The notes below the pieces were generated by a model. That model ran no database searches and was not told the DNA's origin. It saw nothing but the letters and a program-made list of their open reading frames with translations. Below are positions 28,249 to 38,004 of a stretch of 64,000 nt of DNA, one piece after another; within the stretch, counting starts at the first letter, position 1; every line of letters begins with the position of its first letter. The stretch is from Deltaproteobacteria bacterium (GTDB lineage Bacteria; Myxococcota; Kuafuiibacteriia; Kuafuiibacteriales; Kuafuiibacteriaceae): contig JAVJQW010000018.1 of assembly GCA_040218735.1 (NCBI GenBank), positions 160,001 through 224,000 of the forward strand, written 5' to 3'. A program made the position numbers and the translations under genes.

Positions 28249-28265
28249 CGGCGCGCCGAATCGGC
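28249..28265 (+). promoter_or_regulatory. Candidate upstream activator sequence, copy 1
   Basis: CGGCGCGCCGAATCGGC, 16/17 identical to the copy at 29645, starting 59 bp before the -24 TGGC. Confidence 0.5.
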
Positions 28266-28307
28266 GCGATCGTCCGCGTCGAACGTCACGGGGCGCGGAG
28301 ACGCGCC

Positions 28308-28323
28308 TGGCACGCGCCGTGCT
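28308..28323 (+). promoter_or_regulatory. Putative sigma54 promoter of ADYC gene 1
   Basis: TGGCACG-CGCC-GTGCT. Confidence 0.75.
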
Positions 28324-28336
28324 GTCCATGCGGAGC

Positions 28337-33086: not shown

Positions 33087-36000
33087 GGCGAAGTGGTCTC
33101 CTTTGCGAGGTCCATGCAGACACGAAGCCCGACCGACCCGACGCGCAGCGAGGACACGGCGACTGCGCGGTTGGTGAGGCGGTTGGTCTTGGCGTCGTAG
33201 AAGAAGCTGCCGCCTCGGAGCACGAACGTGCTCGTCGAGGTGGCCGCGGTGGTCCATTCGAAGGCGTTGCCCGCCATGTCGGCGAGGTCGAAGGGGCTGT
33301 CGGAGTCGGGGTGCGCGCCGACCTCGTCCGGGCCCATCCCGCCGGGCGCCTTGGCGTACGTCTGGTCGAAGTTGATCGCGTCGGGGTCGAGGACGTTGGC
33401 GTGCGGGTACTCGCGACGGTCGGCGCCGCGCGCGGCTCGCTCCCACTCGCGCTCGGTGCACAGGCGCGCGCCGGGGACGCGCTTCGTATCGTTCAGCCAC
33501 GCGAGGTACGGCTGTGCGTCGTCCGCGGAGACGCCCGTCACCGGCATCCGCAACCAATCTTGCGCTCGGCGGCGATCGCGATCCGGGTAGCGGATCGGCT
33601 CGCCCGAGCGCGCGCGATACGTGACCTTCGCGGGTCGCATCGTGACCGACCACCCTCGCGCGTCGCGGGTGAGTGCCTGGCCGCCCGACGTGAGGCCGGC
33701 GTCGTTCATCTCGGACCCGAGGAGGGCGGCGCGGGACTTCTTGGGGAGGTCGTCGAGGAACGCGAGCCACTGTTCGTAGGTCACTTCGTGTCGCGCGATC
33801 GCAAACGCGGGGAGCGTCGCGGTGTGGGCGGGGACCGCGTCGAAGAAGCCGATTCGGGACTCGTCGTCCGCGGTGCTCCCGTAGACGAAACGCCCCGCGG
33901 GCACATAAACGAACCCGTCCGGGAGCGGTGGTGGTGCCGCGCGTACGTCCAGGCGCAACCGTTCGCCGCGGGTGACCACGAACGGGTACCGCACCGTCGT
34001 TCCCTCGTGCGGGACCGAGAGCCGATACGAGCCCGGGGGCAACGTCACCGCTTCGGTCACGGCTTGGTCGACGGCGACCGGCACGAAGCGGTGGTCTTCG
34101 GAGCCGTAGCGTTCGAGCGTCGCCGAGGTTTGCGCCGGGAGGCCGACGAGCTCGACGGTCGCCGGCGCATTCCAGCGTTCGCGCAGTGTGCCTCCGTCGT
34201 CGTAGAGGGCGAGGCGATCCAGGAGCTCCGACGCGAGCGCGGGTTCTTCGCGGAGCTCTGCGAGCGTCGCGCGCGCGTAGAGGAGCTCGGCGAAGCGCTC
34301 GCGGAGGTCGTCCCGGTCGGGGCGGTGGCCGATCGCCCGCTCCACGTGCTGGAGCGCCTCGCGGTACTTGTCCTCCGCGCGCTCCGCGGCGAGCTTCGCG
34401 GCCGACCACTTCTCCTCCGCGTCTTCGTCGGCGCGATCGAACGCGGCGAAGGCGTCGTGGCGATGCACGTCGTGCTCGCCGCGCGCGGCCTCGGCTTCGG
34501 TGCTCGCTGCGAGGCCCTGCGCGAGCGCCTCCTGTGCGCGGCGTTCGGCGACGCTGTGTTGGTACGCGTAGAAGCCGACCAAAGAGAGCACGACGAAGAG
34601 CGGCGGCGACACGAAGCGCGCGATGCGGCGGGTGCGTTGCCGACGTACGCGGCCGTGGGACGCGGCGAGGAACGCAGCACCATCGGGGCTCGGATCGATG
34701 CGATCGACGAGCGGCGCGATCTCCTCGAGCTGCGTCGTCGACCACAGCGCTTCTGTTGCACGGTCGAGGCGCAGCCACTCCTTCACACCCGCGTTGAGCC
34801 GGTCCTGCGCCGCGCGGACGTCCTCGTCCTCGTGACGCCAGCGTACGAACGTCGGCCACCCGGTGATCAGGACCTCGTGGGCGAGCTCGAAGACCGTCGT
34901 GTCGCCGAGCTCCGCGGCGACGACGAGTCGGCCGGCCACGAGCGCGTCGAGGGTCGCGCGGCGGGCGTGGTCGTCGCCCAGGAGGAGCTCCTCTGCGCTG
35001 CGCGCGACCTTCACCCCTTCGTCGGACGTGAGCATGACGAGGAGCGATCGCGCGTGGCGTCGGTGCCCGGCGGGGAGCGCGGCGACGACTTCGTCGGCGT
35101 GTCGCGCGAGCGCGCCGGCGACGCCGCCGAGGCTGTCGAGCGCGGCTTGGGTGATCGTCCCGGCGTCGATGTCTCGGAGGTGCCACAGCTTCTCGAGCGC
35201 GAACTGGAGGAGAGGGAGCGCGCCGCGGCGGTTCTGGGTCGTGGCGTCGACGAGGGCGTCGACGAGCGCTTCACTCTCGAAGCGGATCTGGGTGGCACGC
35301 GCCGGGCCGATGATGACGTCGCGGACGCCGTCCTCGTCGAGCGGGCTCATCACGTGGATGGAGCGGCAGAGCTGCTCGCCGAGGCGGGGCAGGGCGGCGA
35401 GACGCGTCAGGTAGTCGGCGCGCAGCGTGGCGAGGATGCGCACGCCGGGGACGTCGTCGCAGAGGCGCGCGAGGAGCTCGGCGACGCGGTCGCGCTCGGC
35501 TTCGACGCTCTGCGTGCAGAACTCTTCGAGTTGGTCGACGACGAGGACGATGCCGCGTTCGCTTCCGAGCTTCTTACGGAGCTGTGCGGCGAGGTCGTGG
35601 GGGCGCCGCTCGACGAGCTCGAGGAGCGCGTCGGCGCCGATCGCGACGAGCGCGTCGAGGGCGTCGATCAGGGCGGAGAGCGGGTGGCGACCCGGCGTCA
35701 TGCGCGCCGAGGACCAGGTGCGACCGTCGATGCCCTCCGCGAGGCGCGGGACCACGCCGGCGCGGACGAGTGAAGACTTGCCGAGCCCGGAGTCACCGGT
35801 GACGACGACGAGCGAGGCGGTTCGCAGCTTGTCGAGGACACGTTCGACGTCGCGCTCGCGGCCGAAGAACAAGGCGCGGTGGCGCGCGTCGAACGCGGCG
35901 AGGCCGCGGTACGGGTTGCCTTCGGGGACGGGGCCGACGCGCTGATCGCGCCGGAGGTGCTCCAGCGCATCGGCGAGGGCCTCGGCGCTCTCGAACCGCG

Positions 36001-36958
36001 CGTCGGCTTCGCGCGCGAGGCAGCGGTCGACGAGCGCGGTGAAGCGGCGGTCGAGGCCGACCGTCTCGGTGGCGAGGCCGGGGGCATCCTCGCGGAGGAC
36101 CGTGTCCCGGAGGGCCTCGACGGGAGTCGATGCAAACGGCGTGTGTCCGGTGCACAGCTCGAACAGGAGCGCGCCGAGCGCGTAGAGATCGGTCGCCGCG
36201 GTCGCGGGCTCGGCGCGCCAGCTCTCGGGCGCCATGTAGTCGGGCGTCCCGAGGATCGCTCCTTCGTTCGTGATGCGCCGGGCCGTTGGCACGCCGGGGT
36301 GGGGGGCGATGGTGGCGTCGCGGAGGTCGGGGGCGATGGTGGCGTCGCGGGCCACCGGCGCGATCGTTGCGTCGCGGAGGTCGGGGGCGATCGTCCCGTC
36401 GCGGTGCACCGGCGCGATCGTGGCGTCGCGGAGACTCGCCGCCGCCGCGGTATCCCCGGTCGGCTCGCGAGCATCGGGCCCCTGCTCGAGGAGCTTCGCG
36501 AGCCCGAAGTCGACGAGCTTGGGCTGATCACCTTCGCCGAGGATCACGTTCCCGGGTTTGAGGTCGCGGTGCAGCACGCCGCGTTCGTGCGCGGCGGCGA
36601 GGCCGCGGGCGAGGCCCACGGCGATGTCGAGCACGCGGTCGTAGGCGAGCGGGAGCTCGAGGTCGTCGAGCGCGCGACCGGCGACGAACTCGGAGACCAG
36701 GAACGGGCTCCCGTCGATCTCGCCCGCGCGGTACACCGCCGCGACGTTGGCGTGTTGGATGCGCGCGGCGGCGCGCGCTTCGACGAGGAACCGCTCCTTC
36801 GCGGCGGCCGACACGGCGCGCGATGCGATGCGTTTGACCGCGACGCGGCGGTCGAGGACCGGATCCCGCGCGAGATAGACCTCGCCCATGGCGCCTGCGC
36901 CGAGCTCGCGTTCGACGACATACTCGCCGAACGTCAGGGCGCGCGCCGCTGCGGTCAC
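33083..36958 (-). CDS. Ser/Thr kinase - nSTAND1-like NTPase - TM - FGE-sulfatase (SUMF1) domain protein
   Basis: [35 protein letters not shown], Walker [25 protein letters not shown]-terminal [30 protein letters not shown] start overlaps the activator stop. Confidence 0.92.
36303..36433 (-). repeat. Five 27-bp tandem repeats encoding xxRD[AG]TIAP in the kinase activation segment
   Basis: [45 protein letters not shown] lies between DFG and GTPDYMAPE. Confidence 0.9.
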
Positions 36959-38004
36959 ACGTGTTTCCGGTCGGGGGAGAACGTCATGCGGTCGAGCTCG
37001 TACTGCTTGAGCTTCGTCGTGAACGTGCGCAGCGGCATCGAGATTAGGGCGGCGGCCTCGTTGCGTCGTCCGTCGGTGGCGATCAGCGCGCGGCGCATTC
37101 GGTCGCGCTCGAGGTCGGCGAGCTCGTCGGCGATCGGTTTGAAGCTGACGATGTCGGCGGTCTGGTGCCCGCCCGCGCCGGTCATCAGGGAGTCGAACAT
37201 CAGGTCCACGGTCGCGTCGCACCAGCTCCGGAAGTGCTCCGCGGTCAGCTCGGGGTCGTCGATGACGACGCCGAGGTAGTTCATCGCGGTCTCCAGCTCC
37301 CGGACGTTCCCCGGCCAAGCGTGTTCGTGAAGCTCCGCGATGAATCCGCGGGTGGGTTTCTTCATCGGCGTACCGGCGCGTGTGCAGGCGTCGAAGAGGA
37401 ACTTCTCCGCGAGCGCGTCGATGTCCGAGGGGCGCTCGCGGAGCGGCGGGATCTTGATCGTGGCGCCGCGGAGTCGGAAGAAGAGGTCCTTGCGGAAGCG
37501 ACCCTGTTTCACCTCCGCGCGCAGGGAGCGGTTGGTCGCGGCGACGACGCGCACGTCGACGGGGATCTCGGAGTGCTCGCCGACCGGGCGCACGCGCTTC
37601 GTCTCCAGGAAGCGGAGCAACTTGGCTTGCGCCTGTTCGCTCATCTCGCCGACCTCGTCGAGGAACAGCGTGCCTCCGCTCGCGGCGCGCACGAGCCCCT
37701 GCTGGTCGATGTCGGCGCCGGTGAACGCGCCGCGGCAGTGTCCGAAGAGCGCGCTCTCGATGAGGTTGTCGGGGAGCGCCGCGCAGTTGACGGCGACGAA
37801 CGGGCCCGTGTGCCGACGGGACCACTCGTGGACGGCCGCGGCGACGATCTCCTTGCCCGAGCCTGTCTCACCTTGGATCAGCACCGGGAGCGTCGCGTTG
37901 GCGAGGCGGGATCGGATCAGCTTGAAGATCTTCTGGACACCCCCGTCGGCGACGACGACGTCCTTGGATCCCACGACGTACATCTGGACCATCGATCGGG
38001 ACAT
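36955..38004 (-). CDS. Sigma54-dependent enhancer-binding protein lacking an N-terminal sensory domain
   Basis: [45 protein letters not shown] and a C-terminal Fis-type HTH; only about 40 aa precede Walker A. Confidence 0.93.

Follow-up and report, generated by a model that had tools for sequence, protein, structure and literature searches.

A receptor kinase, ADYC lipoproteins, an FHA relay and a sigma-54 activator as a probable envelope-signalling module of Myxococcota

Genes and promoters of the locus

The window analyzed here is a 64,000-nucleotide stretch from a Deltaproteobacteria bacterium of the Myxococcota (class Kuafuiibacteriia; GenBank assembly GCA_040218735.1, contig JAVJQW010000018.1, positions 160,001 to 224,000, forward strand). 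The source organism comes from a mixed-culture metagenome. The window carries two tandem genes for putative lipoproteins with an ADYC domain (PF20032), which face a convergent four-gene operon encoding a sigma-54 enhancer-binding protein, a receptor kinase, a histidine kinase and a response regulator. An original prediction, made from the window's letters alone, had read these genes as a single signalling circuit. Comparison with related loci leads us to consider it probable, at roughly 0.6, that the locus represents a conserved envelope-signalling module of Myxococcota, composed of a receptor kinase, an ADYC lipoprotein, an FHA relay and a sigma-54 activator. Its features, with lengths in nucleotides (nt) or amino acids (aa), are the following:

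28241–28268, plus strand: tandem palindromic element of 13-nt period, GCCGAATCGGCG-like, a candidate enhancer (TRF, motif co-occurrence)
28308–28323, plus strand: sigma-54 type −24/−12 promoter of ADYC1, TGGCAC-N5-GTGCT, 29 nt before the ATG at 28337
28337 (or 28328)–29626, plus strand: gene of the putative lipoprotein ADYC1 (PF20032, E 5e-35, 121.5 bits)
29652–29660, plus strand: the palindrome in one copy (CCGATTCGG), 51 nt ahead of the −24 element of ADYC2
29703–29718, plus strand: sigma-54 type −24/−12 promoter of ADYC2, TGGCAC-N5-CTGCT, 30 nt before the ATG
29733–30764, plus strand: gene of the putative lipoprotein ADYC2 (PF20032, E 1e-33, 117.2 bits)
30787–31167, minus strand: single-domain response regulator, receiver only (PF00072, E 2e-23)
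31203–33086, minus strand: cytoplasmic histidine kinase of FHA-GAF-(PAS)-HisKA-HATPase layout (Pfam, hydropathy scan)
33083–36958, minus strand: Pkinase-nSTAND1-FGE receptor kinase, 1291 aa (Pfam)
36955–38004, minus strand: sigma-54 enhancer-binding protein (the activator), 349 aa, with AAA+ and HTH_8 domains only (Pfam, sequence, tree)

The activator and kinase genes overlap by GTGA (36955–36958) and the kinase and histidine-kinase genes by ATGA (33083–33086); the histidine kinase stop is followed after 35 nt by the receiver start, and the receiver and ADYC2 genes are convergent, with their stops 22 nt apart. All six genes, both 4-nt overlaps and the 35- and 22-nt gaps are found in the open reading frame (ORF) list and Pfam assignments just as they had been described. 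Both ADYC proteins score above the Pfam gathering cut-off of PF20032, which is 27 bits. The parts of a two-component system are present, with PF00072 in the receiver and PF00512 and PF02518 in the histidine kinase, and the H-box histidine and the receiver aspartate are seen in the translations at the positions customary for these motifs; kinase, Walker and H-box motifs, by their usual definitions, are likewise visible. The FHA domain of the histidine kinase (PF00498, E 1.9e-14) carries the Gly-Arg, Ser-x-x-His and Asn residues commonly taken as the signature of the domain. A hydropathy scan found no hydrophobic segment in the histidine kinase, the activator or the receiver.

Linkage of kinase and ADYC, and the ADYC promoters

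Related loci were fetched by alignment of the ADYC domain, one genome per species, the best 80 of 141 relatives were kept, and each, with a flank of up to 10 kb, was searched by tblastn with the domains of the window. In 26 of the 80 loci, which come from other species, ADYC has a kinase-nSTAND1-FGE gene immediately ahead of it on the same strand, and in one more (L094) that gene is located downstream, so that the conserved linkage in other genomes on which the original prediction had staked itself beforehand is present. The kinase stop and the ADYC frame are often 4 nt apart or overlapping. Sorted by the labels of their records, 23 of 45 Myxococcota loci and none of five Cyanobacteriota loci whose upstream flank measures 1500 nt or more have the kinase directly upstream of ADYC, as do two of 17 loci labelled Pseudomonadota, both from one metagenome bin with a phylum-level label only.

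The order of the genes is permuted between lineages and the parts are kept. Activator, kinase, FHA-kinase and ADYC form one row in L028, and activator, kinase and ADYC do so in L031, L039, L074 and L078; in L055 and L058 the activator lies on the opposite strand from a row of kinase, ADYC, FHA-kinase and receiver; and L025, from the same genus as the window, has ADYC followed by receiver and FHA-kinase on the opposite strand, as in the window. Within the window's class, 20 genomes were compared, with ADYC called above the Pfam cut-off. A kinase orthologue occurs in four of them, the same four that have ADYC, and these belong to three genera, two of which also have species with neither kinase nor ADYC. 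Because the genomes are related, this co-presence is given as a pattern and carries no statistic. The recurrent linkage and the matching presence and absence support, at the level of sequence, the proposal that the locus is one conserved functional module. Since ADYC in most genomes lies directly behind the kinase gene, often 4 nt away or overlapping it, ADYC appears to be at least as much a partner of the receptor as a mere output. Its earlier designation as the output of the circuit is to be corrected in this sense. A locus of Tahibacter (L086) has a pentapeptide protein, then ADYC, then a Pkinase-TPR protein.

The 64-kb window contains exactly two matches to the pattern TGGCAC-N6-TGC. One, at 28308, lies shortly before the start codon of ADYC1 and the other, at 29703, shortly before that of ADYC2, which corroborates the claim that the tandem genes each possess a sigma-54 type promoter; in both sites GG and GC are ten bases apart. 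Shuffled versions of the window contained 0.31 matches on average and two matches were reached in 6 of 100 shuffles; it is the placement of the two matches and their recurrence in other genomes that make them unlikely to have arisen by chance. The genome contains three ADYC genes, namely the two of the window and an unlinked one on contig C23 (G000:C23:309543), which has a TGGCAT-N5-CTGCT promoter and no activator within 23 kb. All three have a −24/−12 site with the palindrome CCGAWTCGG 51–65 nt before it. Genome-wide, 88 promoter-like and 154 palindrome sites give four co-occurrences within 20–300 nt, against about 0.3 expected, and three of the four are those of the ADYC genes. The tandem form of the palindrome, with its 13-nt phasing, is found twice in 11.6 Mb, before ADYC1, where it lies about 52–65 nt ahead of the −24 element, and before the C23 gene. 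In the same-genus locus L025 a palindrome element is located 52–53 nt before the −24 box, and related sequences hold the same place in two promoters of genome G016.

Across the 80 loci, 51 strong sigma-54-like sites were counted in 2.31 Mb on both strands; 14 of these lie within 500 nt upstream of an ADYC gene and on its strand, against about 0.9 expected, and L028, L031 and L039 each have a row of activator, kinase and ADYC gene, the last with a sigma-54 site ahead of it. Because in many genomes ADYC lacks a promoter of its own and the 10 kb around it contain no activator, sigma-54 control of ADYC is lineage-specific and not universal. The claim that ADYC is under sigma-54 control is supported by the promoters and palindrome of the window and by the 14 upstream sites, but has to be narrowed to certain lineages.

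The T of TGGCAC precedes the start codon of the signal peptide by 28–31 nt in 13 distinct ADYC promoters (window 28308–28339 and 29703–29735; G000:C23:309543; L025, L028, L029, L030, L059, L068, L072, L082, L015 and L091). In the usual geometry, sigma-54 transcripts start about 12 nt after the GC, and the 28–31-nt spacing would therefore leave a 5' leader of only 2–5 nt, without a ribosome-binding site; these 13 promoters would give near-leaderless sigma-54 transcripts. An RNA run covering the stretch was looked for among 20 runs and not found. Ordinary leaders of 45–71 nt are found in L031, L038 and L039, and the sites L094:9524 and L104:9517 precede a small signal-peptide ORF of Asn-Gly pentapeptide repeats, just before the ADYC domain. 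Strong sigma-54 sites of Sorangium (L044:10794, L047:10801 and L078:1992 (−)) adjoin the kinase-ADYC pair and stand before genes of other lipoproteins; one of these lipoproteins is cysteine-rich and about 390 aa long, and that of L078 is a ricin-type lectin, divergent from the FHA activator. The fourth promoter-palindrome co-occurrence of the window's genome belongs to a lipoprotein gene on the minus strand (G000:C55:212586). Its TGGCAC-N5-CTGCA site stands 29 nt ahead of the ATG, a single CCGATTCGG copy is found 76 nt upstream, and an activator and a histidine kinase lie 4–5 kb away. It was left out of the ADYC regulon as a non-ADYC lipoprotein with its own activator 5 kb off and one palindrome copy.

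Receptor kinase, ADYC proteins and the route to transcription

The receptor kinase is built of a Ser/Thr kinase domain (PF00069, E 1.6e-38), an nSTAND1 NTPase (PF20703, E 1.5e-95) and an FGE domain (PF03781, E 3.5e-34). It has one hydrophobic helix (residues 782–799, DNA 34562–34615) with a run of arginines before it, and because the single helix is preceded by arginines, the kinase and NTPase are predicted to lie inside and the last 490 residues outside. A helix before the FGE domain was found in 24 of the 26 orthologues examined, the other two being cut by a contig end. True FGEs have a catalytic cysteine pair just after a conserved Gly-Gly-Ser motif. In an alignment of 23 ectodomains of kinase-nSTAND1-FGE orthologues, cysteine is absent in every sequence from the stretch after the invariant Arg-Gly-Gly motif, and HMMER alignments of the ectodomain to true FGEs stop short of the catalytic-cysteine stretch. 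The solved relatives of the ectodomain include SUMF2, SUMF1, EgtB and PvdO, in agreement with an FGE fold, and the closest is the non-catalytic paralogue SUMF2 (E 1.9e-11). The missing catalytic cysteines, the proximity to SUMF2 and the outside placement argue for a lectin-fold binding module. The FGE domain is accordingly predicted to be non-catalytic and, as had been assumed at the outset, an extracytoplasmic binding module. Its mean column identity is 52% in the 23 sequences, and the window's genome has only one kinase-nSTAND1-FGE gene.

Within the kinase domain, a tandem repeat of 27 nt x 5 (36298–36433, minus strand) encodes RDATIAPDL five times in the activation loop, between DFG and APE. 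Long Thr-bearing inserts occur in the activation loops of orthologues too, as with TGDL x 4 in L028, and Kofleriaceae orthologues have short loops. Such repeats may provide the FHA partner with phosphothreonine docking sites.

ADYC proteins occur widely in Myxococcota, Cyanobacteria and Proteobacteria. Both N-termini in the window read as lipoprotein-type signal peptides ending in Cys (...VLSAC and ...LFAAC), and certain cysteines and an ACVR..RAD motif are invariant throughout the family. A search of the literature found no paper on the ADYC domain or PF20032, 'ADYC' elsewhere standing for unrelated acronyms, in line with the earlier remark that these domains have no assigned function. A domain model computed for ADYC2 from 76 sequences reached pLDDT 88.8 and pTM 0.85 and replaced a poor first model from 15 sequences (pLDDT 51.5). 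With the good model, Foldseek returned no match in the PDB at E ≤ 0.001, the best hit of a wide VIA-align search was a small beta-barrel at Z 4.7 over 65 residues, so that no fold is assigned, and the ESM Atlas gave ADYC clusters only. Co-folding of the kinase ectodomain with mature ADYC2 scored 0.01 and 0.00, below the mark, in runs without controls. At kinase-linked loci the ADYC N-terminus often bears Asn-Gly pentapeptide-type repeats, and some longer myxobacterial ADYC proteins are fused to ricin-type (ricin-B) lectin or CBM6/CBM35 modules (P0001, P0003). A glycan-directed role at the envelope is a reasonable guess, and we read ADYC as the partner of the receptor because it is usually co-transcribed with the receptor gene. 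Genome G016 has 15 ADYC matches, many in open frames of 570–740 aa (L013–L021). ADYC1 contains an 18-nt x 5.1 repeat (29159–29250, plus strand), which forms a Gly/Ser/Ala-rich low-complexity insert that splits the ADYC domain into two Pfam stretches.

The activator has a sigma-54 AAA+ domain (PF00158, E 2.6e-64) with the GAFTGA loop read in its translation, a lid, and a C-terminal HTH_8 domain (PF02954, E 2.4e-7). It has no N-terminal sensor domain: the AAA+ domain starts at residue 23, and the ORF, 36 nt from the next gene, cannot be extended. The window's genome encodes one rpoN (Sigma54_DBD match, C9:168658–169134) and 95 activator-like AAA+ matches. An activator is carried by 14 of the 80 loci, 10 of which also have the kinase. 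The N-terminus of these linked activators is an FHA domain in five (L037, L074, L078, L090, L094) and a receiver in six (L054, L055, L058, L066, L092, L101); L028 has none, like the window, and in L031 and L039 the N-terminus is long and matches no Pfam family. A tree of 98 AAA+ cores (the window activator, 83 paralogues from its own genome and the 14 linked activators; IQ-TREE quick search, LG+G4) joins the window activator with L039, L074, L078 and L090 (SH-aLRT 91) and then with L028 (89), and all 83 paralogues fall outside this group, whose members have, as judged by eye, a distinctive C-terminal DNA-binding region in common. Judged by the tree together with the shared cis elements, the window activator is the best candidate for a regulator common to the three ADYC genes.

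An FHA-GAF histidine kinase and a receiver behind the kinase recur in G001, in G015 and in both copies of G016. The simplest history, judged from these arrangements, would have a kinase and an FHA activator that read phosphothreonine directly as the ancestral state, the activator of the window's class having lost its FHA region. A phosphothreonine-FHA step is supported by the occurrence of FHA on the activator itself (5/14) or on the histidine kinase in related modules. The earlier idea that phosphothreonine recruits the FHA protein, as a link between kinase and transcription, is backed by comparison only.

An SDR gene (38041–38811, minus strand) lies 36 nt upstream of the activator, and a gene for an FGE-domain lipoprotein (38826–40220, plus strand) diverges from it. 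Both were considered as parts of the module and set aside, as they are syntenic in the same-genus genome only and absent from other modules. A second Pkinase-nSTAND1 protein (58374–60929, minus strand, 851 aa) has no FGE domain; its gene converges, with no spacer, on one for a Peripla_BP_6 periplasmic binding protein (56949–58373, plus strand). Among the flanking genes, no link to the module was seen for the HmuY-domain protein and TonB-dependent receptor at 40217–43921 (minus strand) or for the FabH-like and nitronate-monooxygenase-like genes at 26146–28214 (plus strand).

Proposed route, rival explanations and known systems

The core of the proposed module is a single-pass receptor, with the lectin-like FGE domain outside and the nSTAND1 NTPase and a Hanks-type Ser/Thr kinase inside, paired with a secreted cysteine-rich ADYC lipoprotein. 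The ectodomain would bind a ligand, possibly a glycan or ADYC itself, upon which the NTPase would switch or oligomerize and the kinase autophosphorylate, as the STAND and Hanks-kinase paradigms suggest. An FHA domain would then read the phosphothreonine, here on the soluble GAF histidine kinase and, by comparison, on the activator in sister lineages. The histidine kinase with its receiver would modulate the sensor-less activator, which is the weakest step of the scheme. The activator would bind the GCCGAWTCGGC palindrome, whose copies are observed about 75–90 nt upstream of the start site, and fire the sigma-54 promoters that precede the genome's three ADYC genes. ADYC would return to the envelope, where it probably works with the receptor ectodomain, closing a feedback loop; in the window's lineage, ADYC expression would additionally be under the receptor's output. 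A bolder form of this reading, which we consider somewhat less likely than not, sees an NLR-like STAND receptor turned inside-out into a surface receptor kinase, with ADYC as an obligate co-receptor, an extracellular, probably glycan, cue, three phospho-currencies in series (phosphothreonine/FHA, His-Asp and the ATP-driven sigma-54 activator), and a small regulon of near-leaderless ADYC transcripts.

Several observations weigh against the module as drawn. The palindrome search pattern was written after the motif had been seen. In four Sorangium loci (within L043–L047) ADYC lacks a separate promoter and the neighbouring 10 kb contain no activator, and a strong sigma-54 site precedes another lipoprotein gene in L078, which has the activator, and in L044 and L047, which do not. 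A second copy of the kinase operon in G016 (contig C224, L112) stands without an ADYC gene in the surrounding 5.9 kb. Support in the activator tree is moderate (SH-aLRT 89–91, below the 95 mark, from a quick search), and L031 falls outside the group. A single-domain receiver also follows the FHA kinase in L055 and L058, where the activator has its own receiver. Because the same receiver thus stands beside receiver-bearing activators, its role as the link to the window activator is uncertain and amounts to a guess; the same two loci weaken the notion that receiver and activator are the halves of one split NtrC-type regulator.

Some of these points feed an unlikely alternative, in which the operon is a real signalling unit whose activator serves other promoters, the ADYC genes being fired by one of the roughly 80–95 other activators and their adjacency being a remnant of an older kinase-ADYC pairing. 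In its favour, the genome has 95 activator-like matches, convergent genes are not co-transcribed, the best sigma-54 site beside the orthologous activator of L078 drives the ricin-type lectin lipoprotein and not ADYC, and the Sorangium ADYC genes have no sigma-54 site of their own. Yet the unlinked third ADYC gene has the rare tandem palindrome of ADYC1 with no activator nearby, which makes one dedicated regulator for all three genes the simplest reading. Moreover, the only activator consistently linked to ADYC and kinase across genomes belongs to the window's orthologous group, and L028, L031 and L039 keep activator, kinase and sigma-54-preceded ADYC in one row. That the neighbourhood is a matter of chance, with ADYC genes and kinase operon functionally unrelated, is hardly credible: the genes do converge in the window, where no common transcript is possible, but their linkage recurs in permuted orders across many species and their presence and absence match across the 20 related genomes.

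Two further alternatives assign the receptor kinase another function. In one, which we judge improbable, the kinase-nSTAND1-FGE protein would serve in immunity or conflict as a counter-invader sensor of the NTPase-FGS type: its FGE domain would detect a molecule of the invader and its kinase would be the effector, with the regulators and ADYC no part of the system. An effector-nSTAND1-FGS layout with an N-terminal Ser/Thr/Tyr kinase is catalogued as a predicted conflict system in PMC8195603, CLec/FGE-STAND proteins diversified by diversity-generating retroelements are put forward as antigen sensors in PMC10907252, and myxobacteria are multicellular, a habit that both sources describe as enriched for such systems. 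The sensors catalogued in PMC8195603 are intracellular, however, whereas the one considered here is predicted to lie outside the membrane; its ectodomain is conserved and not hypervariable, the gene is present in a single copy in the genome, and the proteins that regularly accompany it are a lipoprotein, an FHA-domain protein and a transcriptional activator rather than proteases, TIR or adaptor domains. Very unlikely, finally, is a maturation system in which the outside FGE domain would enzymatically modify an ADYC residue, for instance a cysteine to formylglycine. ADYC is indeed cysteine-rich with invariant cysteines, and an FGE-family domain is encoded next to it in 26/80 loci, but none of the 23 ectodomains (23/23) has a cysteine in the stretch after Arg-Gly-Gly, where the catalytic position is generally placed, and the best solved relative is the non-catalytic SUMF2.

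The conserved envelope-signalling module is hence the reading we prefer. The locus is real, conserved and made from known kinds of parts, and the signalling route that it would encode has not yet been described in print. For ADYC it provides a regulator that can be tested, together with candidates for the DNA site and for the receptor partner. To the long-held view that Ser/Thr kinases of myxobacteria control sigma-54 activators via FHA it contributes a concrete kinase, FHA reader and set of target genes. It also suggests that the kinase-nSTAND1-FGS proteins, filed as intracellular immune sensors, include outward receptors wired to transcription. The inside-out STAND reading, if true, would reveal a signalling route made from immune-type parts and give a first functional handle on the ADYC family. 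The module is experimentally tractable in Sorangium, whose culturable members include Sorangium sp. So ce1000 (L078), with FHA activator, kinase and ADYC, and S. cellulosum So0157-2 (L045), with kinase and ADYC.

Among systems with similar parts, lipoprotein-assisted envelope sensors are known from RcsF-IgaA and NlpE-CpxA. In these, as in the window, a membrane sensor has a lipoprotein that is encoded beside it or under its control and that would supply it with information on the envelope; the proteins are unrelated, however, the output of the window's module would pass through Ser/Thr phosphorylation, FHA and sigma-54, and binding of ADYC to the receptor is putative. PspF is a sensor-less activator regulated in trans by PspA, and like the window activator it consists of AAA+ and DNA-binding domains only and requires a separate controlling protein. 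In contrast to PspF, the window activator has no PspA-like partner; the candidate controllers are the kinase, the histidine kinase and the receiver, and its gene is translationally coupled to that of the kinase. FHA-domain enhancer-binding proteins have reportedly been found in Myxococcus xanthus, where a Ser/Thr kinase is presumed to be linked to the sigma-54 activator via FHA. Sister loci of the window have such activators beside the kinase; in the window, the activator's FHA has been lost and an FHA-GAF histidine kinase and a receiver are found instead, and genome context points to the STAND receptor as the cognate kinase and to ADYC as the targets. The Tahibacter locus resembles the window in having ADYC beside a Ser/Thr kinase, but differs in its sensor domain, which is TPR.

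The closest precedent is the kinase-nSTAND1-FGS layout, predicted to be an intracellular counter-invader system (Kaur, Burroughs, Iyer, Aravind, eLife 2021, PMC8195603). That article describes the FGS/FGE fold as a lectin-fold binding module and nSTAND1 NTPase-FGS systems as intracellular sensors that exist in several diversified copies per genome and are often linked to diversity-generating retroelements or adaptor domains; neither 'sigma-54' nor 'lipoprotein' appears in its main text. The window kinase shares with these systems the arrangement of one polypeptide with an N-terminal effector-type domain, nSTAND1 and a C-terminal FGS/FGE domain. It is unlike them in the membrane helix that would place the FGS domain outside, in its single copy and conserved ectodomain, and in its conserved neighbours, an ADYC lipoprotein, an FHA-bearing relay and a sigma-54 activator.

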